64,000 bases of DNA from Sphyrna mokarran. Taxonomy: Eukaryota. Both the position numbers and the translations under genes were made by a program. A model generated the notes under the pieces. That model saw nothing but the letters and a program-made list of their open reading frames with translations. It had not been told where the DNA came from and made no database searches. Position 1 is the stretch's first letter. Every line of letters begins with the position of its first letter. Shown in pieces: positions 1-63,564 of this stretch. The stretch is from NCBI GenBank assembly GCA_024679065.1, contig JAGIQG010000012.1, forward strand, positions 87,358,001 through 87,422,000. Direction: 5' to 3'.

Positions 1-31
1 TATGGAGCAGGGAGCCAGCTCAATGTCATTG
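1..31 (+). CDS. Gene A: 3' end of a V/J-type Ig-domain exon (YGAGSQLNVI, J-like GxG motif); truncated by window start
   Basis: TAT GGA GCA GGG AGC CAG CTC AAT GTC ATT G|GTAAAG gives a J-like G strand with a phase-1 donor, matching the phase-1 TM exon at 5165. It resembles ISGKGTQLNVT|GTAAGT of gene B. Confidence 0.7.
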
Positions 32-3572: not shown

Positions 3573-5164
3573 CAAATCTCCTCTCCGCTTTCTCTCTCCC
3601 ATGGAAATCAGTCCTAATTTCTACAATTCTTCTCCAAAGCCCAGGAGACTGTGTGCTTTATTAACTGCTCTCTCCACCTGTTCTATCAGCTTCAATGAAT
3701 TATACATACACACACTCAGCTGCCTCTGTTTCTGCACCCCCTTTAGATTTGTAATCCTGTATTTACATTGTTTCTTGATGTTCTTCCCACCAACATGCAT
3801 CTCCTCACATTTCTCCGGGTCAAACTTTATCTGCCACCTGTCTGCCCATTCTAACATTTTGTCTCTGTCCTATTGAATTTTCAAATAATATTCCTCACAG
3901 TTTCCAATATTCTCAAGTTTCAGATCACCCATAAATGTTGAAATTGTATTCTATACGCTAAGGTCTCGGTCATTCATGTATTTGAGGAAAAGCAAGATCC
4001 CAGCACTCAGCCCTGGGGAACTCCACTACAAATGATGGCTGATGTTGGGCTGCAACTCCATTCGCTGCCTGTTCACCGTACGACCATCAGACCATGAAAT
4101 ATAGGAGTAGAATTAGGCCACTTGGCCCATCGAGTCTGCTCTGCCATTCAATCATGGCTGACAGGATTTTTATCCCCATTCTCCTGCCTTCTCCCCATAA
4201 CCCCAGATCTCATTATTGATCAAAAACCTATCTATTTCTGTCTTAAAGACACTCAATGACCTGGCCTCCTCAGCCCTGTGTGAATATGAGTTTCACAGAT
4301 TCACCACTCTCCGGCTGAAGAAATTCCTTCTCATCTCAGTTTTAAAGGAGTGTTCCTTCACTCTGAGGTTGTGCCCTCGGGTTTCAGTCTCTCCCACCAG
4401 TAGAAACATCCTCACCATGTCCACTCTATCTGGGCCTTTTTTTCATTACATCGACCTTCAGATAACATCAGCGTCCTTTTGTTATATTTTAGACAGACAA
4501 TGTAGGTTCCAAATCAATACTAACTTCAGCACATCGTTGATAGAAGAAATGAACCAAACTTCAAGTTAAATTCATGGGGTTGAAATTGTAGAAGTGCGTC
4601 TGCCAACTCCAGTTAAACACCGTATCTCTGTCACCGTATCTCTGAATTCCTCGACAGAGCAAAATCTCTCTATTCCAGCCTTAAATGTATTTAACAATGG
4701 AGCATCCACACCCCTCTGGGTGCAGCACTGGAGAGATGGTTGCTGAGTTAGTGAGATTTGGTGAGTGTGGACAGGCAGGGGAAGGAGATCATTCCTCATC
4801 CTCCCAACTTCACACAAACAAGCGTTTGGAAGTTCTGGGATTTTTTTGAATGTTCCTCTGTGATTCTTTGGGATTGGTGCAAACTGCCAATGGATCACGG
4901 CTCTCTGCCCTGCTGTACGATTGATCTTTGGGCTCATTTCAGATCCATAAAAAAAGGTAACAATGTTAGAGGAAGAAGCCATTATGTGGCACTGGCCTTT
5001 CATTCCAGGCTGTTAACTTGCCTTGTATGAAAGGGATAATTTTACCCGAATGTGCTGAGCAGAAACTGATGGGAACAGGTTCTGTCTGATTTTATTTCCA
5101 TTCCGGTTGTTCTACATTACTCAAACTGAAACTGTAGTGTGTGTAACATTCTGATATTTTACAG

Positions 5165-5315
5165 AAGAACCATCTTACAATAATCCTTGGACTTCAGATC
5201 CTATTGTGTTAAGCCTGGCTATCATTCTGCCCTTGGTTGTCCTCTTCTGCGTTGTTCTGCTCATAAGTTATCTTGTGATAAAAAGGTTCTGTTCATCAAG
5301 GAACTCCACACCAAG
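5165..5315 (+). CDS. Gene A stalk/transmembrane exon (EEPSYNNPWTSDPIVLSLAIILPLVVLFCVVLLISYLVIKRFCSSRNSTPR)
   Basis: Acceptor ttttacAG and donor GTAAAT, phase 1 to 2. About 25 uncharged hydrophobic residues are followed by KR. Conserved paralogous exon at 35397-35547. Confidence 0.85.
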
Positions 5316-6039: not shown

Positions 6040-6083
6040 GGTTCCTGATGGAGACCAGAACCCTGTGTACGCAACAGTGGATA
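6040..6083 (+). CDS. Gene A cytoplasmic exon 1 (VPDGDQNPVYATVD)
   Basis: tttctttAG acceptor and GTAAGT donor, phase 2 to 1, open frame with a YxxV motif. Confidence 0.8.
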
Positions 6084-7011
6084 GTAAGTAAACTAATTCA
6101 ATCATTATTGCAAAGTTTGTCAGGAATTATTCTCAATCCCAGATGTCCCTTTGATGCTGATGGATTTGTGATGTAATTAACTTGCTAATAATTTGCCCAA
6201 TTCATTGTCTGATTGACAGAATTTACTGTTAAAGGTTGTAAATCTACATCCTACAGAATGAAGATGGTGGGAGGCTGCCCCCAGCCTTGTAGCTGCACTG
6301 TGAAACACCCCCTCAGTGTGGCAATGCTGCAGCCAGTGGCTCCAAAGAGATAGAAACTTCCAGAAAGGAACAGCCTCCTCTGTGTCACCAGCATGTAGTG
6401 ATCATGCCTTTGTAGATCGAGCACATTGTCCGTTCACAGGGGGATTCCTCGGGATAGAGAAGGTTCAGATCTGACCCAGTAAAGAGTTTAAAGATGGTGA
6501 GGTTTTGATAGAGGGAAAATCTATTCCCTCTGGTGAACGGATCAGTAACCAGCGATCATCGATTTCCAATCACTGGGTAAAGATCTAGAGAGCAGATGGG
6601 GAGAAATGAGAGTTGTCGGGATGTGGAATACTCGAGCTGGGAATGTGGTGGAAGCTGATTCCAGAAATAATTGGAAAAGACAATTGGCCAAGTGCTGGAG
6701 GATAAGGAATTTCCAGGATTGTGAATAAAAAGCAGGAATGTGGGATTAAGGACAATGACTCTATTAATGACCTCGTACAGGCTGAATGGGGCAAATGGCC
6801 TCCTCCTGTTGTGTGAGATTCTAATTTGGATGATGAGTTTTTGAAGACAGTGCAGCTGATGGAGAATAATCCCCACCTCCCCCATTAGCTTCACTCTGAG
6901 AAAACTGCCCAAGGTGACACTGGGATTTTTCTATCCCTCTCATTCCAAGTTTAAAAAGCTCCATCTTTCCGTGGATCTATTCGGAAGTAACATCGTTACG
7001 TTTCCTTTTAG

Positions 7012-7055
7012 ATAAAATCCAGCGCAGCAAACAAGGAGCAGCTTCTTCTGCCTTG
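7012..7055 (+). CDS. Gene A cytoplasmic exon 2 (NKIQRSKQGAASSAL)
   Basis: tttccttttAG acceptor and GTAAGG donor, phase 1 to 0. Paralog at 37244-37287. Confidence 0.78.
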
Positions 7056-8653
7056 GTAAGGGAATGTCATACAGCTGTTGTGTTTTACTGTATTTTTCAT
7101 ACTTCAGCTTTGCAAACTGTTTCCAAAATAAGCAGCACGTTGTATTCCACAGGAGCACCATCCATATTACTGTAAGAATAAATCATTGCAGTGTTACAGA
7201 CAGGAGAGTGAGAATAACCTGCACTGAGTTCCCCACACCACCTGTCTGTCAGCAGACGCACTTGAGAATTCTTTTTGAAGAATGTGGCGGCTTCTTTTCC
7301 AAATCCTTTGGTTTGTGTGAATCAATTTACAAAGAAACTGCAGGAAACTGGAGTTATCATTAACTCCGAAAGTTACATTAAACCTGGAGAAGAATGTTCA
7401 CAACTTCCCACTCCACCACAAGCACACCCTCACACACACCCACACACACCCTCCCTCACACATCCTCGCAAGCACCCTCGCACGCACTCACACATATACC
7501 TTCACATACATCCTCACACATAGACACACTCTGACACATACGCACACATCCTCACACACACAACACACACATACCCCCATGCAGAGACATATAAAGACTT
7601 CCTTATACACTCACACACACCCTCACACACATACATACATACATACACACATTTACCTGACTCTCACACACCCTCATGCGTGCACACATTGAGGGTCTTG
7701 TGTGGTGAATTCATTGTCTTGACTGACTCTAACTCTGCTCAAACGATGAGCTTATCAATTTCAAATGGCCATCCACGTTCCTCTTTTGAACGCTCCTTGG
7801 ACTGGGAGGGTCCAAGCTGTGAGTCTGTTAGCAGCTCTGGGGGTACAATGAGTGTGGATGTGTGAGTTTCCTGGTTTCATGATTACAGGGGGTCAGTAGA
7901 ATGAAATGAGAGATTCCACAGGCTAAGGAAATATATTTTTCCTTGTACCTTCTGGGGACTCTCTAGCACAAAGGGCAAACTATGCAGTCATGTGACTAGT
8001 AGTAGCCATCTTCTTGTTTCAGCAGAGAATCAATTTTTAAAAGATAGCAATAAGGACAAAGTTTGAACGTACTTTCCGTGACTTTGTGCCCGCATTCACC
8101 ATGAGCGCAATCGGCAAAATCTTGTGAAAGCCGGAAATGAGAATCTCAGTGGTGATTTTTGCCACCCCATAGCGATGATGTAATGATGTGCCCGCCCAGA
8201 AAAGAAGCCTCATTTCAATAAATTATATTATTATTAAAAGGGTTCCCTCCTGTCATGTTGGTGAGATTTACAGCAGCTATTGAATGTGAACCGGGTGAAG
8301 GGAACCTGCTGGGGCCACACAGGTAGATTCAGACCCCAGGTGAGGGAGGGGAACATACCAGGTCAGGACCCTGGCATTGCCCCCAGCACTGGAGGGTGCC
8401 TGATCCTCGAGTTGCTGGTGGAGTCGGTGAATCAGGGGTCGCCCCGCCAACAAAATATCGTGGGATTCAGTCTCTGGTTGAGTTTTTTGCGGGACTTTAC
8501 AGCAGAGAAATCTTCTATTGCTGTCAGCGCCTTCAAAACCACTCCTCCTACCCACTATCCCCCCTTCGCGATTTCCTGGGAACCCTCACCCAGCGCCTAT
8601 TACAGAGTCTGGAAAAAAATAATCAAGGATTAGAATGGTACAAAAATAAAGTA

Positions 8654-27590: not shown

Positions 27591-27642
27591 ATGATCAGTA
27601 AAACTCTTTTTGTTCTAACTCTGTCTCTCTGTGTTTCTGGGG
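27591..27642 (+). CDS. Gene B leader (signal peptide) exon (MISKTLFVLTLSLCVSG)
   Basis: gagATG start, hydrophobic core, phase-1 donor G|GTAAGT matching the V exon acceptor at 30004. Confidence 0.85.
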
Positions 27643-29845: not shown

Positions 29846-30003
29846 ACAGGCACACCCCCCCCCCCCCCCCCCCCCCCTCCCAACACAGAAACTCTACTCC
29901 CTGGACTGTCCCTTTAAATACTCATGGGAATTTGAAACCTTCAACTCAGAATTTAACTCACTGATTTCTGTCACTCACTGATTTGCTTCTCCTCTGTTTA
30001 AAG

Positions 30004-30707
30004 ATGTGAAGCTTCTAGATGTTATCCAGTCTCCGAATGTGGAACGTGTCACAGAGGGTCAGACTGCACGGTTACAGTGCACCCTGAGGAACGCCGCAGT
30101 GACACACACTGATGTTCACTGGTACCAGGAGCTACCTGGGAAAGATAGGGAGACAGTTTTAGTAGATGAACCACCGAACATCATAACCCGGGGTTCAGGT
30201 TTCACTGAGCGATTCCAGCCTTCCAGAGACACCTCCAATAACAGCTTCATTCTGACAATCTCCATGGTGCAGCCCAGTGACACTGCCGTCTATTAGAACA
30301 TAGAACATAGAACATTACAGCACAGAACAGGCCCTTCGGCCTTCGATGTTGTGCCGACCAATATAAAAAGCAATGCCCTCCAAACTAAACCATTCCCTTC
30401 TCTTCCATATACTTATCAACTAACCTCTTAAACGCCACCAAACTTGGCGCATCTACAACTGCTGCAGGCAGGGCATTCCACTCCCGAACCACCCTTTGGG
30501 TAAAGAACCTACCTCTGATATCCGTCCTATAACTATCACCCCTTAATTTAAAGCTGTGTCCCCTCGTGCTAGCTTTCTCCATCCTAGGAAAAAGGCTATC
30601 ACTGTCCCCCCTATCTAAACCTCTAATCATCTTATATGTTTCGATTAGGTATTACTGCTCAGTGTGGGGAGATATCAGTGGCAAGGGGACACAGCTGAAT
30701 GTAACCA
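30004..30707 (+). pseudogene. Gene B germline-joined V-J Ig domain exon, interrupted by a CR1 insertion (30296-30649)
   Basis: DVKLLDVIQSP..LQC..VHWYQ..RFQPSRDTSNNSFILTI..QPSDTAVY[insert]YCSVWGDISGKGTQLNVT|GTAAGT. All V-set hallmarks and the J-like GxGT motif are in one exon. The insertion creates an in-frame TAG at 30294-30296. Confidence 0.92.
30296..30649 (-). mobile_element. Young CR1 3' fragment inserted in the V exon, 5-bp TSD TATTA
   Basis: TATTA at 30291-30295 and 30650-30654. Near-identical to the 3' ends of the CR1s at 8654 and 48070. Confidence 0.95.
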
Positions 30708-33830: not shown

Positions 33831-35396
33831 TTGCTGAATCTGTCTCCACCACATTCTGAGATAGTACATTCCAGATACTCATCACTCACTGTGTGAAAAG
33901 GGTTTTTCTTAATTTTGCATTGGTAAATTACTTTATTTTGATTCCGTGTAGTTCTCGGTCCTTTCACAATGTGAGCAGTTTCTCACGATCTACTCTGTCA
34001 GACCGTCAATGGTTTTGAAGATGAGTTAAATCCCCTCTCCGCTTTCTGTCCCCCATAGAAATCAGTCCTAATTTCTACAATACATCTCCAAAGCCCAGGA
34101 GACTGTGTGCTTTATTAACTGCTCTCTCCACCTGTTCTATCAGCTTCAATGAATTATACATACACACACTCAGCTGCCTCTGTTTCTGCATCCCCTTTCA
34201 ATTTGTAATCCCGTATTTACATTGTTTCTTGATGTTCTTCCCAACGACATGTATCTCCTCACATTTCTCCACGTTGAACTTTATCTGCTACCTGTTTGCC
34301 TGCCTCACCGTACGACCATCAGACCATAAGATAGAGGAGTAGAAATAATCCATTTGGCCCATCGAGTCTGCTCTGCCATTCAATCATGGCTGACAGGATT
34401 TTTATCCCCATTCTCCTGCCTTCTCCCCATAACCCCAGATCTCATTATTGATCAAAAACCTATCTATTTCTGTCTTAAAGACACTCAATGACCTGGCCTC
34501 CTCAGCCCTGTGTGAATATGAGTTTCACAGATTCACCACTCTCCGGCTGAAGAAATTCCTTCTCATCTCAGTTTTAAAGGAGTGTTCCTTCACTCTGAGG
34601 TTGTGCCCTCGGGTTTCAGTCTCTCCCACCAGTAGAAACATCCTCACCATGTCCACTCTATCTGGGCCTTTTTTTCATTACATCGACCTTCAGATAACAT
34701 CAGCGTCCTTTTGTTATATTTTAGACAGACAATGTAGGTTCCAAATCAATACTAACTTCAGCACATCGTTGATAGAAGAAATGAACCAAACTTCAAGTTA
34801 AATTCATGGGGTTGAAATTGTAGAAGTGCGTCTGCCAACTCCAGTTAAACACCGTATCTCTGTCACCGTATCTCTGAATTCCTCGACAGAGCAAAATCTC
34901 TCTATTCCAGCCTTAAATGTATTTAACAATGGAGCATCCACACCCCTCTGGGTGCAGCACTGGAGAGATGGTTGCTGAGTTAGTGAGATTTGGTGAGTGT
35001 GGACAGGCAGGGGAAGGAGATCATTCCTCATCCTCCCAACTTCACACAAACAAGCGTTTGGAAGTTCTGGGATTTTTTTGAATGTTCCTCTGTGATTCTT
35101 TGGGATTGGTGCAAACTGCCAATGGATCACGGCTCTCTGCCCTGCTGTACGATTGATCTTTGGGCTCATTTCAGATCCATAAAAAAAGGTAACAATGTTA
35201 GAGGAAGAAGCCATTATGTGGCACTGGCCTTTCATTCCAGGCTGTTAACTTGCCTTGTATGAAAGGGATAATTTTACCCGAATGTGCTGAGCAGAAACTG
35301 ATGGGAACAGGTTCTGTCTGATTTTATTTCCATTCCGGTTGTTCTACATTACTCAGACTGAAACTGTAGTGTGTCTAACATTCTGATATTTTACAG

Positions 35397-35547
35397 AAGA
35401 ATCATCTTACAATAATCCTTGGACTTCAGATCCTATTGTGTTAAGCCTGGCTATCATTCTGTTCTTGGTTGTCTTCTTCTGCGTTGTTCTGCTCATAAGT
35501 TATCTTGTGATAAAAAGGTTCTGCTCATCAAGGAACTCCACACCAAG
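35397..35547 (+). CDS. Gene B stalk/transmembrane exon (KESSYNNPWTSDPIVLSLAIILFLVVFFCVVLLISYLVIKRFCSSRNSTPR)
   Basis: Paralog of 5165-5315 with the same splice sites; no charged residue in the TM segment. Confidence 0.85.
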
Positions 35548-36271: not shown

Positions 36272-36315
36272 GGTTCCTGATGGAGACCAGAACCCTGTCT
36301 ACACAACAATGGATA
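36272..36315 (+). CDS. Gene B cytoplasmic exon 1 (VPDGDQNPVYTTMD)
   Basis: Paralog of 6040-6083; AG/GTAAGT boundaries; YxxM motif. Confidence 0.8.
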
Positions 36316-37243: not shown

Positions 37244-37287
37244 GTGAAACCCAGCGCAGCAAACAAGGAGCAGCTTCTTCTGCCTTG
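37244..37287 (+). CDS. Gene B cytoplasmic exon 2 (SETQRSKQGAASSAL)
   Basis: Paralog of 7012-7055; AG/GTAAGG boundaries, phase 1 to 0. Confidence 0.78.
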
Positions 37288-38218
37288 GTAAGGAAATGTC
37301 ATACAGCTGTTGTGTTTTACTGTATTTTTCATACTTCAGCTTTGCAAACTGTTTCCAAAATAAGCAGCACATTGTATTCCACAGGAGCACCATCCATATT
37401 ACTGTAAGAATAAATCATTGCAGTGTTACAGACAGGAGAGTGAGAATAACCTGCACTGAGTTCCCCACACCACCTGTCTGTCAGCAGAAGCACTTTAGAA
37501 TTCTTTTTGAAGAATGTGGCGGCTTCTTTTCCAAATCCTTTGGTTTGTGTGAATCAATTTACAAAGAAACTGCAGGAAACTGGAGTTATCATTAACTCCG
37601 AAAGTTACATTAAACCTGGAGGGAATGTTCACAACTTCCCATCCATCACATACACACTCCCTCGCACATACCATCATATTCCCCTTTACACACACTCCCA
37701 CACACACTGTCATCCACACACACACTTTCATACAACCTCAAACAAACCCCCACACAAACCTTCACACACACCCTCACACAAACTTCTCACACACACCCCC
37801 TCAAAGTCAGCGTCACACAGCATCTACACACACCCATGCACGTGCACCCCTTCACACACACAACAACCCACGCACACTCACTCACAACCCACTCTCACTC
37901 ACAGAAACACACACCCTCACTCCAGTGCAACGCCTCAATCCCACATGATAGGTAAAATGGCTGTAGAGAGATTGGGCTAAACAAAGGCAATTGGGATGAG
38001 ATTAGTGGTAAAACTGGGTAGTATGGACAAGTTAAGCCAAAGGGCCTGTTTCCATGCTGTAAAATTGTATGACTTACTAACACACCCTCACACATACACC
38101 CACACACACACACACATAAAAGTTGCCTTTTATGGAACTCAGTTTATTCTCTATTGTGTCATTAAATTCTCCTTATTCTTCACTTCATTTTGTCAATTTT
38201 TCAACATTTCTTCAATTT

Positions 38219-39876: not shown

Positions 39877-39918
39877 AAATTGGAAGATTCTCCAGGAGAC
39901 TTGGACTCAATGTACATG
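39877..39918 (+). CDS. Gene B cytoplasmic exon 3 (KLEDSPGDLDSMYM), first ITAM tyrosine
   Basis: ttttgttacAG acceptor and GTAAAT donor, phase 0 to 0. Confidence 0.75.
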
Positions 39919-41122: not shown

Positions 41123-41165
41123 GTATTACAGCAAAGACCTGAGTCTATATACGGTGACCTTAAAG
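41123..41165 (+). CDS. Gene B cytoplasmic exon 4 (VLQQRPESIYGDLK), completes ITAM YMVL-x7-YGDL
   Basis: ttttctgttAG acceptor and GTATGT donor, phase 0 to 1. Splicing to the previous exon gives DxxYxxL-x7-YxxL. Confidence 0.78.
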
Positions 41166-42039: not shown

Positions 42040-42065
42040 GCAATAAACAAACTCGTGATTACTGA
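42040..42065 (+). CDS. Gene B terminal coding exon (GNKQTRDY*)
   Basis: ttttgtttaaacAG acceptor, phase 1, TGA at 42063-42065. The exon is short, so the call is less certain. Confidence 0.55.
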
Positions 42066-52604: not shown

Positions 52605-52656
52605 ATGATCAGTAAAACTCTTTTTGTTCTAACTCTGTCTCTCTGTGTTTCTGGGG
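52605..52656 (+). pseudogene. Gene C: orphan leader exon (MISKTLFVLTLSLCVSG) with no V exon downstream
   Basis: Same coding sequence as 27591-27642, donor weakened to GTAATT. Homology to gene B stops at about 53050. Confidence 0.75.
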
Positions 52657-53049
52657 GTAATTACAAGTTATGGTTTGGTTTGGAGAAGTTTCACTTGAGA
52701 TTAAAATATCTCTCCCTGGTTTATGCTGCTGTGTGTGTCAGCTCCTGTATTGTGTGTGGATTCCACAGTTAGAACATTCAGAACTGGATATGAGTCTTAC
52801 AGGAGAATTTATCATTGTATTGAGATAGTTTAGTGTATCTGACACAGAATTACACAGACTGGGAACACGGATCACAGAACTGAGTGTTCCACCATTCTTT
52901 CCAGTTTAATGGGACCATGGGTTTGACTGACAGTCTGTACATTAATTGGGTGTATTTGTGGGCACTGCAAGGCAGCAGTGTTAAACACTGTGCCACCGTT
53001 CCACCCCACCACTAGTAACACTACCCCACCTCCTGTTTCATATTTTCCT

Positions 53050-53375: not shown

Positions 53376-53554
53376 ATAGTGCAAGGATTGTTTCCAGTGA
53401 TGACATGTTCTGAAATGTCCAAAATTCAGATGCCCATTGGCCTGTGATGAACTTTTTAATGTGACTGGAACCAAAGAGTTCAACACACATCTTTGTTTAA
53501 GGTTAAAATTTCTGTTTATGATGAAAGCATCTCACTTTCAAACTTAACCTGGAG

Positions 53555-53766
53555 TTATCATCACTATTTCCCAATGTGTTATGATCACTATTTCCCAATG
53601 TGTTATGATCACTATTTCCCAATGTGTTATGATCACTATTTCCCAATGTGTTATGATCACTATTTCCCAATGTGTTATGATCACTATTTCCCAATGTGTT
53701 ATGATCACTATTTCCCAATGTGTTATGATCACTATTTCCCAATGTGTTATCATCACTATTTCCCAG
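53555..53766. repeat. 24-bp minisatellite (ATCACTATTTCCCAATGTGTTATG) x about 9
   Basis: Perfect tandem repeats, visible as periodic peptides in the ORF track. Confidence 0.97.
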
Positions 53767-55942
53767 TGTATCTTTTGCTGTGACATTAATAATTCACCCT
53801 GTGTTTTGCATTGATTTTTCAGGGAGTAAGCTACAATTAAAGTTGGGTCACAAATCCTTCAAAACAACTCAAAGGGTTCATGAAGTGGGCCTTTACCTAC
53901 CTTTGTAGGTAATTAAGGATGACCAATAAATGCCAACCTTGCCCAGGGCACCTACCTCGCTGTGGCTGCCCACTCCAAGCTAGGTGCCAGATTTTTTTCA
54001 TAAATCATTAAATTGAACACATTATAATCTTTCATTTTTTTTTATTTAAAATGACGGCATTTTCTGAAATGTACATAACTCAGCTGCTCATTGGCCTGTG
54101 ATCCAACTGCAACCAAAGAGTTCAACATCAAACCTTCGCTGTCAGCGGGGGTGACATTGGAATCACCCGCTAATAGGGAGACCAGGTAACATGCCGGGCA
54201 GTTGAGCACCAACACTGTGCCAGGCAGCGCCAAGGCTCAGATTGAGTTGCCAAACACATGTTGATCTAGACAAGACTTGAGAGTGAAGGTGTGTAATCCA
54301 CTCAAACATTTCAATTCTATGGGAATACCTGAGCATGTCTGGGACCTCGTCGAAGCCCCGGTTTTAGAACGCTCGCTCACAAAGGCACTTTCTCTATTGT
54401 CATTACCTATAGGCTGGCTGTTACCCAATCAGAATTGGTCATTACTGATGGGTCTTTGAATGCAATCGACTGATATTCATTTTTATATAAATACTTTAAA
54501 CAAATTCATATTCTTTATGCTTTCATTAACATTATCAAATTCAGAATGCAGCGTGTGATTATTTTATGAATATTTAAATCATTTTGAAGCAAGCTGTGAC
54601 TTTGGGGCTGGTTCAGATCTGAAACCATGCTGGTTCATGTGGGAGGACAGGACATTGTCCTTTCCCTGCTCCACCTCACAAATCATTTCTGTACAACCCC
54701 ATTAGAGATCTCTAGTGCAACATTTTCTCCAGACTTCCCTTCATCTGTGACTCCCAGAGTGAGAAGATGGTGGGTTCTGCTTCCCACCACATTGCAGTGA
54801 AAACACTGCCTCCAGCTTTTTCAACCTTGGCCTGATTCCACTCAGTTCAGCGTCCCACATTCATCATTCAGAAAAATACCCCGATCTCCCTGAACCCAAT
54901 CAGAGAGACAGTTCGAGGAATGGAGTCACAGAATCTCCATTCCACAGCTCCAGGCACAAGGCAGATAGGTGTTCAAATCCTCAGGTGTCACGCCAATTGG
55001 TACAACACACACATTGGGTCATGCCAATTGGTACAGGTCACACACTGATCCCTCCATCCAGCCTACCTTACACAAGATCAACAACCTGTGCCTGAGAGTG
55101 AGAGGTAATTAACAGGCTCACTGTGTGGGAGAGAAGGAAGGATTGGCTGGTCAGGTAAACTCAGCAGGAAATTACTGGATCTGAATGTGTCCTCACACAG
55201 TGGGAGCTGGCAAACGGGCACACATACCCTCACTGCCTTGTGACAAAATGCTGTCCTTTCCCACTGAGAATAGTTATCTCAAACGCAACACACCTGACAA
55301 GAGCCCATTCCATTCCAAACGCCTCAGTCCTGATGAAATCTCTCTCTCTCTCCCCACAGGTACTGCCTGAGAATTTACCTTTTTCATGTCTAAAACCACA
55401 GTGAGTCTGACTTAAAAGAAACACGCAGGATGAGGGTGTCGCTGGGCAAGACCAGCATTTGTTGCTGACCCTAATTGCTCTTGAACGGAGTGACTGCAAG
55501 GCCAATTCGGAGACAGCCATATTGCTGTGGGTCTGGAGTCACGTATAGACCAGGCCTCACTCTCCAGCTGCTGGGAATGGTCAAAGTCTACACTCAGTAT
55601 TATTCCTCGCAGACTCCAGTCCCTCAATGCGGTCTGATTAATCTCTGTAAACTGTGGGAGCTCGGACAGACACTCACAACTTTCACCTCCATCTTCCTGT
55701 TAAATATAGCTGCAGTAAAATCGCAGAGTTCATTCTCTTTCCCGAGACAGACCGATCCAGAATGAAATGGACCCTCCAGCTATCACTGGCTATTCAGTTA
55801 TCATCCCAGATCCAGCAATGCCAGCTCGCCCTGAGTGGGGTAAATCCACTCCGTCCCTATCCGGAAAGTTCCATTTCACAGCGGCAACTGACAGGGAGGG
55901 GGCGGGTTCGCTCTGGAATCCTCACCAATCACCCAGCGGCGT

Positions 55943-56262: not shown

Positions 56263-56289
56263 CTGGAATAGAAAAAGATCAAAGTTTAC

Positions 56290-57106
56290 TGTCCATTCCC
56301 AGTGACCCATTCACTGCCCATTCCCAGTGACCCAGTCACTGACCATTCCCAGTGACCCAGTCACTGCCCATTCCCAGTGACCCAGTCACTGCCCATTCCC
56401 AGTGACCCAGTCACTGACCATTCCCAGTGACCCAGTCACTGCCCATTCCCAGTGACCCAGTCACTGACCATTCCCAGTGACCCAGTCACTGACCATTCCC
56501 AGTGACCCAGTCACTGACCATTCCCAGTGACCCAGTCACTGCCCATCCCCAGTGACCCAGTCACTGCCCATTCCCAGTGACCCAGTCCTGCCCATTCCCA
56601 GTGACCCGTCACTGCCATCCCAGTGACCCAGTCACTGCCCATTCCCGTGACCCAGTCACTGCCCATTCCCAGTGACCCAGTCACTGACCATTCCCAGTGA
56701 CCCAGTCACTGCCCATTCCCAGTGACCCAGTCACTGACCATTCCCAGTGACCCAGTCACTGCCCATTCCCAGTGACCCAGTCACTGCCCATTCCCAGTGA
56801 CCCAGTCACTGCCCATTCCCAGTGACCCAGTCACTGACCATTCCCAGTGACCCAGTCACTGCCCATTCCCAGTGACCCAGTCACTGACCATTCCCAGTGA
56901 CCCAGTCACTGCCCATTCCCAGTGACCCAGTCACTGCCCATTCCCAGTGACCCATTCACTGCCCATTCCCAGTGACCCAGTCACTGACCATTCCCAGTGA
57001 CCCAGTCACTGACCATTCCCAGTGACCCAGTCACTGACCATTTCCAGTGACCCCAGTCACTGACCATTCCCAGTGACCCAGTCACTGACCATTTCCAGTG
57101 ACCCAG
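56290..57106. repeat. 25-bp minisatellite ((A/C)CCATTCCCAGTGACCCAGTCACTG) x about 33
   Basis: Tandem array with a 25-bp period. Leftover units occur at about 58108 and 59385-59408. Confidence 0.97.
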
Positions 57107-57109
57107 TTG

Positions 57110-62594: not shown

Positions 62595-62784
62595 TCTTCT
62601 CCAAGAAAAACAGCCCCAACCTCATCACATAACTAACATTCACGTCACTGACACTATAATGAATATTAAAATGCACCATCAAAAATATGCCTGTCACTGC
62701 AATAACATTCTACACCACTTGGGGGCAGAAAAACCTCAGAATTTCCTTCAACACAGCTTGCCCTCATAAAGCAGCACTGAGAGA

Positions 62785-63543
62785 CTTTTACTCTGTATCT
62801 AACCCCGTGTTGTACCTGTCCTGGGAGTGTTTGATGGGGACAGTGTAGAGGGAGCTTTACTCTATATCGAACCCCGTGCAGTACCTGTCCTGGGAGTGTT
62901 TGATGGGGACAGTGTAGAGGGAGCTTTACTCTGTATCTAACCCCGTGCTGTACCTATCCTGGGAGTGTTTGATGGGGGACAGTGTAGAGAGAGCTTTACT
63001 CTGTATCTAACCCCGTGCCGTACCTGTCCTGGGAGTGTTTGATGGGGGACAGTGTAGAGGGAGCTTTACTCTGTATCTAACCCCGTGCTGTACCTGTCCT
63101 GGTAGTGTTTGATGGGGGACAGTGTAGAGGGAGCTTTACTCTGTATCTAACCCCGTGCTGTATCTGTCCTGGGAGTGTTTGATGGGGGACAGTGTAGAGG
63201 GAGCTTTACTCTGTATCTAACCCCGTGCTGTACCTGTCCTGGGAGTGTTTGATGGGGGGACAGTGTAGAGGGAGCTTCACTCTGTATCTAACCCCTTGCT
63301 GTACCTGTCCTGGGAGTGTTTGATGGGGGACAGTGTAGAGGGAGCTTTACTCTGTATCTAACCCCGTGCTGTCCCTGTCCTGGGAGTGTTTGATGGGGAG
63401 ACAGTGTAGAGGGAGCTTTACTCTGTATCTAACCCCATGCTGTACCTGTCCTGGGAGTGTTCGATGGGGGGACAGTGTAGAGGGAGCTTTACTCTGTATC
63501 TAACCCCGTGCTGTACCTGTCCTGGGAGTGTTTGATGGGGGAC
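62785..63543. repeat. About 69-71-bp satellite (ACTCTGTATCTAACCCCGTGCTGTACCTGTCCTGGGAGTGTTTGATGGGGACAGTGTAGAGGGAGCTTT) x about 11
   Basis: Tandem array; unit length varies in the G run. Confidence 0.97.
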
Positions 63544-63564
63544 AAAGTTCCACTCTTATATAAG

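Follow-up and report, generated by a model that had tools for sequence, protein, structure and literature searches.

The membrane-proximal tyrosine of gene A, in the motif YATV, is on balance probably an inherited site of SHP-1/SHP-2 type, which is conserved under an inhibitory tail and is eroding in duplicates that carry only an ITAM tail, and the differences between genes A and B around this tyrosine are, judged from the sequences compared here, not one tuned switch. Both genes lie in the window analyzed in this work, a stretch of 64,000 nucleotides from Sphyrna mokarran, and the family to which they belong is, on its sequence features, a VJ-type paired-receptor cluster of a known kind, which can be likened to receptors of the CEACAM1/CEACAM3 type.

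In gene A, a leader and three VJ-type V domains of one exon each are followed by a transmembrane (TM) exon, two 44-bp cytoplasmic exons, the first of them bearing the tyrosine, and a terminal exon; the parts inside the window are:

1..31, + strand: 3' end of the third V(J) exon of gene A (the leader, V1, V2 and the greater part of V3 precede the window)
5165..5315, + strand: TM exon of gene A, with an uncharged membrane span and 79% identity to Mustelus P0025
6040..6083, + strand: juxtamembrane tyrosine exon of gene A, NPVYATVD, amino acids as in Mustelus P0025
7012..7055, + strand: second 44-bp cytoplasmic exon of gene A, with a phase 0 end where the tail type is chosen (junction as in the catshark isoform pairs)
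7153..7171 (also 37385-37403), + strand: 19-bp exon-like segment
15713..15835, + strand: terminal exon of gene A, CSYVEL and TEYSTV, 70% identity to the P0025 tail

The terminal exon contains TEYSTV, which is an ITSM under the definition TxYxx(V/I), and CSYVEL, a non-canonical ITIM without the ITIM residue at −2, and the juxtamembrane NPVYATV, with Pro at −2, fits neither (I/L/V/S)xYxx(L/V) nor TxYxx(V/I) (definitions of PMC2832619). This proline sets the juxtamembrane site apart from a canonical ITIM or ITSM, and the site may bind SHP2 only weakly. Mustelus P0025 shows this exon order too, together with NPVYATVD, matching the tyrosine exon of gene A exactly throughout at the amino acid level, which fixes the reading frame and makes Val the ancestral state. 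Sharks and sawfish account for the named matches of the V exon, the best of them at 75% identity (Mustelus), and in a PDB sequence search the 60 matches listed were all antibody V domains. We discarded the idea that the 19-bp segment is a constitutive exon, as it throws both tails out of frame and is absent from homologous proteins, and it is likely skipped. Five copies keep it, with good splice signals; it may be a relic, or a regulatory exon that truncates the product.

Gene B starts with a leader and a single V exon, shares the three middle exons of gene A, and ends in three ITAM-tail exons:

27591..27642, + strand: leader exon of gene B, phase 1
30004..30707, + strand: single V(J) exon of gene B, interrupted by an insertion, with one TAG inside the match
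30296..30649, no strand assigned: CR1-type 3' fragment of 354 bp in the V exon of gene B, with TATTA duplicated at 30291-30295 and 30650-30654 and up to 98% identity to other nearby copies
35397..35547, + strand: TM exon of gene B, A-like (5 differences from A vs 20-22 from copies C, D and E)
36272..36315, + strand: juxtamembrane tyrosine exon of gene B, NPVYTTMD, identical to copy E
37244..37287, + strand: second 44-bp cytoplasmic exon of gene B, identical to copy C
39877..39918, + strand: ITAM exon 1 of gene B, ending in DSMYM, phase 0
41123..41165, + strand: ITAM exon 2 of gene B, which completes the first YxxL and is followed through a 7-residue spacer by YGDL
42040..42065, + strand: terminal coding exon of gene B

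The sequence-only reading had described gene A as inhibitory, gene B as carrying an ITAM, and the three differences between their tyrosine exons as falling around the tyrosine. All of this holds: coordinates, splice ends and mismatch count were verified. The break in the V exon of gene B, described below, had escaped that reading. The two 44-bp exons (6040-6083 and 36272-36315) are both bounded by AG/GT, differ at exactly 3 of 44 bases, and translate as VPDGDQNPVYATVD in gene A and VPDGDQNPVYTTMD in gene B. Going from gene A to gene B, the G>C change at 6067/36299 (GTG>GTC) is silent in Val, the G>A change at 6071/36303 replaces Ala by Thr, and the G>A change at 6077/36309, a single transition, replaces Val by Met.

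These exons sit within a 3.5-kb block in which the two genes are 97% identical, and the A-B difference rate of the introns (21/1977) predicts 0.47 differences in 44 bp, such that three or more would arise with a probability of 0.012 for the tyrosine exon considered singly. An equally tight cluster of three A-B differences in 11 bp is found in the intron at 6440-6450, a further one opens the next exon (7012-7018), and when the 34 A-B differences were placed at random, some 3-in-11 cluster appeared in 24% of trials. Taken together, the exons also diverge more strongly than the introns (11/239 vs 21/1977, p=3e-4), and thus the excess reaches beyond the tyrosine.

A search of the same genome with the tyrosine exon gave at least five matches, copies A-E, all paralogue counts here being lower bounds. 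The motif is YATV in A, YTTM in B, YATM in C, CTTM in D, which has lost the tyrosine, and YTTM in E. ITAM exons are present in copies B, C, D and E, each of which yields (D/E)xxYxx(L/I)x6-8Yxx(L/I) once its two ITAM exons are joined in phase 0, a junction that is backed by catshark proteins. A sixth copy, F, has the inhibitory tail of gene A and has lost the tyrosine exon. Between 5700 and 6130 the variants are nested, with sites shared by B, C, D and E (5752, 6077), by B, D and E (6023, 6071, 6120), and by B and E (5836, 6067); one site, 5950, conflicts with this nesting, and every exonic A-B difference has an intronic variant with the same distribution among the copies. These patterns argue that the three changes arose at three times, stepwise by descent, and that Val>Met, being common to all ITAM copies, is one event inherited four times. 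The proposal that point changes had been tuned together to the polarity of each tail fails here, since three coordinated changes are ruled out by the three differing distributions among the paralogues. What survives of it is that Val>Met tracks the ITAM tail, with Met in four of four ITAM copies and Val in the one inhibitory copy that retains the exon; Ala>Thr is unlinked to the tail and the third change is silent.

The ITAM copies together carry five amino acid changes in the 21 bp about the tyrosine: V>M in all of them, A>T in B, D and E, Q>R and P>A in C, and Y>C in D. Across the copies, five of the six variable sites of the tyrosine exon are nonsynonymous, all on the ITAM side. This exon is more variable than the introns (6/44 vs 70/1947, p=0.006), such that pure relaxation fails to explain the rate, and does not exceed the TM exon (33/151, p=0.29), such that the excess is not specific to the motif. 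The TM exon itself (5165-5315 and its paralogues) is far more variable than the introns, with Pro and Gly lying within the predicted membrane span of copies C, D and E.

Taking the paralogues into account, we considered whether selection, acting a single time in the ancestor of the ITAM copies, favored the Val>Met change for creating a p85 site that provides co-stimulation beside the ITAM, a site that would now be usable in copy C only; on these sequences we regard this as unlikely. In its favor, Met is found in all four ITAM copies and is absent in A, and it persisted while the adjoining exons were exchanged with A, as is evident in gene B, which is a mosaic of an A-like TM exon, a tyrosine exon identical to that of E and a next exon identical to that of C. 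The retention of Met in all four ITAM copies likewise counts against the erosion of the site that we prefer. Set against selection for p85, the change is a single G>A transition, and of its carriers D is without the tyrosine, B is broken, and for E no V exon was found within about 48 kb upstream. Only copy C could therefore carry YxxM in an intact receptor.

The damage to gene B lies in its V exon, which the CR1 insertion breaks just ahead of the second cysteine, with an in-frame TAG at 30294-30296 immediately at the insertion. No second V exon was found between the leader and TM exon of gene B, and no GTRAG donor that could splice out the insert was found in 30001-30660. Rescue of the V exon by removing the insert was rejected on this ground, and also because use of the AG at the insert end joins the leader out of frame. 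Transcripts with a premature stop are degraded, and by this established rule the early in-frame stop would lead to degradation of the full gene B transcript. Gene B is thus, by its sequence, likely a pseudogene. Skipping of the broken V exon joins the leader (27591-27642) to the TM exon (35397-35547) in frame, and a possible product of such a transcript is a predicted membrane protein with a short ectodomain, YTTM and an ITAM. The intron at 4122-5123 and its counterpart at about 34354-35355 contain roughly 1 kb with zero A-B differences, which suggests a recent conversion tract reaching into the TM exon. Extra copies of the leader exon occur at 52605-52658 of the window and at other loci, with no V exon found after the copy at 52605 in the window or the next 30 kb. 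Self-comparison of the window also revealed tandem minisatellite arrays at 53554-53769, 56285-57107 and 62779-63544.

Genes A and B were accordingly rejected as a receptor pair, as the V exon of B is broken and the ectodomain of A matches that of C. Copies A and C share 12,464 bp at 99.95% identity across V1-V3 (G000:C224:87345606-87358069 vs 87270669-87258207, the genes being inverted), near-identical ectodomains with opposite tails in one cluster, as in paired receptors, and this identity reflects either a very recent conversion or an assembly duplication. Copy C looks intact, making A and C a candidate pair of inhibitory and activating receptors. In V2 of both, Ser replaces the first canonical Cys. 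More distant family members lie at G000:C224:87147k-87173k and 87894k-87971k, one with LDTVYAHV and an inhibitory terminal exon and another with a PDYENI tail.

To place these copies in the wider family, we compared 78 homologues, excluding 15 that have no TM span and setting aside 19 with unclassified tails, which left 31 inhibitory and 13 ITAM-tailed proteins; isoforms and orthologues are among them, and the rows are not independent of one another. YxxV is present in 28 of the 31 inhibitory homologues (YATV 20, YTTV 4, YAAV 2, YASV 2), the tyrosine is missing in the other 3/31, and YxxM occurs in 0/31. Thr at +1, as in YTTV, is thus found in inhibitory proteins too, and in many homologues the −2 residue is T, I or V, which does fit an ITIM or ITSM at the juxtamembrane tyrosine. 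The ITAM-tailed homologues have YENV (5), YENI (3), YETV (2), YATV (1), YGNM (1) and YPRW (1, probably not the equivalent position), such that YxxM is found in 1/13 and most ITAM tails in the family carry an upstream YEN. A profile search with the ITAM tail gave 12 matches, of which three were already known, two are long repetitive proteins, and seven are further proteins, several of them named CEACAM- or PSG-like, all with YEN and none with YxxM (0/7). The catshark ITAM cluster members have YxxM in 0/3, and four catshark proteins have YATV preceding an ITAM tail. Two protein searches with the tail region found no additional relatives.

The association of YxxM with ITAM tails and of YxxV with ITSM tails that had been expected in other family members is consequently not borne out, with YxxM at 1/13 under ITAM tails and 0/31 under inhibitory tails, and with YATV on four ITAM-tailed catshark proteins. 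These frequencies, together with the 0/7 of the further matches, also speak against a selected p85 site. They are in line with an eroding phosphatase site, as YxxV is kept in nearly all inhibitory homologues, YxxM is absent from them and copy D has lost the tyrosine, and as the ITAM proteins of carpet sharks altered the same site differently (YENV, YETV). We note, however, that copy F, which lacks the exon, and the three inhibitory homologues without the tyrosine indicate that the site is dispensable in some inhibitory genes.

With regard to the ancestral state, the S. torazame isoform pairs P0082/P0079 and P0055/P0080 are identical over 286 residues, including YATV, and then continue into either an inhibitory or an ITAM tail, switching at the same junction as genes A and B. 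On these RefSeq models, one annotated S. torazame gene appears to give an ITIM/ITSM-type or an ITAM tail through alternative 3' exons. In a weakly resolved tree of the TM module, built on 59 columns with the motif taken out, ITAM tails occur on this module in carpet sharks, catsharks and Sphyrna mokarran, the site reading YENV or YETV in the first, remaining YATV in the second, and having become YxTM and CTTM in the third. The ancestor would have been a two-tail gene like that of the catshark, and its duplicates would each have lost one tail by reciprocal loss. Gene A retains a 3' flank that in copy C follows the ITAM end exon, which is consistent with loss of the ITAM block. The ITAM-only copies would then have been freed from keeping the phosphatase site, or pushed to lose it, with Met at +3 weakening SHP2 binding and any p85 binding being a by-product relevant only to copy C. 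A broader version, in which ITAM-fixed duplicates of a two-tail VJ receptor ancestor independently re-tune the SHP2-type tyrosine, to a GRB2-type YENV in carpet sharks and a p85-type YATM in copy C, is a doubtful extension that we put forward tentatively.

The biochemical meaning of the site was assessed against published profiles. In the SHP2 data consulted, in Tables 2-4 of PMC12878756, the library motifs of the SHP2 C-SH2 domain favor A/S/T/V at +1 and I/V/L at +3, with M unlisted, and YATI is among the natural SHP2 ligands, such that YATV looks SHP2-type and Met likely weakens it; in PMC3514216, though, one YxxM peptide beats a YASI peptide at the SHP2 N-SH2 domain (IC50 11 vs 25 uM). The YATV core resembles these YATI-type ligands and the PD-1 ITSM, including ligands with Pro at −2, but the predicted site of gene A is without the aromatic +5 of the tighter ligands described there. 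For p85, Table 3 of PMC3514216 gives pY-[V/D]-x-[I/M/V] (N-SH2) and pY-[V/M/E]-[N/T/M]-M (C-SH2), and for GRB2 the same article gives pY-[V/E]-N, which YEN fits. A tyrosine with Met at +3 is present in B, C and E, D having Cys in place of Tyr. By these tabulated profiles YTTM and YATM fit p85 partly: T at +2 (in YTTM and YATM alike) and M at +3 suit the C-SH2 domain, a point for a selected p85 site, but +1 is T or A, outside either profile. That the ITAM tails of the family usually have an upstream YEN, an activating-type site matching the GRB2 profile, is a further point for selection.

CD28, ICOS and DAP10 likewise have a membrane-proximal tyrosine with Met at +3, as in B, C and E; here, however, +1 is Ala or Thr rather than V, M, E or D, and the site, which is putative only, is not conserved in the family and is lost in D. 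The inhibitory receptor CD300f reportedly binds p85, judging from the title of a reference cited in PMC10768021 and PMC7247439. YxxM in fish LAG-3 is discussed as possibly inhibitory in PMC10768021. YxxM is thus not a polarity marker, and the assignment of the motif as a PI3K p85 docking site is not sustained here, given the residue at +1 and the presence of YxxM in inhibitory receptors, which also weighs against selection for p85.

It is also conceivable, if somewhat unlikely, that the motif serves chiefly in trafficking, as an NPxY signal overlapping Yxx-hydrophobic, that V>M is conservative and that the link to the tail is chance descent. NPxY is an internalisation signal, and NPVY is retained in A, B and E, but C has NAVY in its place, and the signal is not a general trait of the family, where TVY, IVY and AVY are found. 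All of the variants that keep the tyrosine (YATV, YATM and YTTM) match the endocytic consensus Yxx(L/M/V/I/F) quoted in PMC2832619, and an intronic cluster equals the clustering of A-B differences at the tyrosine. Such a signal does not account for the nonsynonymous changes at 5/6 variable exon sites, all on the ITAM side, or for how tightly the inhibitory homologues keep Y-small-x-V (28/31). Our preferred reading remains an inherited phosphatase site that is probably under erosion.

Among known systems, the closest likeness is to paired receptors of the CEACAM1/CEACAM3 type, which, as the available sections of PMC2832619 describe them, have ITIM/ITSM and ITAM members with ectodomains homogenised by gene conversion, a phase-0 intron that splits the first YxxL of the ITAM, as in gene B, and, in marsupial ITAM members, an upstream YxN motif for GRB2, as in most shark ITAM members. 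Our ITAM-tail profile matches shark and chimaera CEACAM- or PSG-like proteins at E values of 4e-5 to 6e-4. The CEACAM ectodomain has a Cys-less N domain followed by C2-type domains. The ectodomain here, in contrast, is at least one single-exon VJ-type V domain with Cys/Trp and a J-like end, and with these V-set VJ domains the family is not placed among the CEACAMs. By sequence, the tail module alone appears to be common to CEACAM-like proteins and the shark VJ family. The shark and chimaera proteins P0088, P0089, P0091 and P0093 (CEACAM-, PSG- and HEPACAM-like) carry YEN with the same ITAM tail module as the VJ family, hinting at sharing of tail exons between IgSF families.

A germline-joined VJ exon is also known from UrIg, UrIg2, NKp30 and PRARP (PMC12227049 and PMC10751288, in the parts consulted). 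UrIg and UrIg2 combine VJ with C1 domains, and the sections of PMC12227049 available mention no ITAM or ITIM, whereas the family described here has signalling tails. Its closest homologues, P0025 and P0058, have V-set domains only, with no C1-set match, and the only exons mapped between leader and TM exon in A and B are V exons; with no C1 domains of the UrIg type, the family is not placed with UrIg/UrIg2 (PMC12227049, PMC10751288 and PMC6795676). No description of a shark VJ paired-receptor family was found in the literature searched, a search that lay outside most subscription journals.

Taken alone, the motif switch amounts to a single point mutation and would be of small consequence. The cluster, on the other hand, brings together antigen-receptor-like V domains, a CEACAM-like tail module, and variants of one tyrosine site (YATV, YATM, YTTM, CTTM, YENV and YETV) on both tail types. 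These natural variants make it testable how a two-tail gene splits into activating and inhibitory receptors, and whether leftover inhibitory sites are then removed or re-tuned.
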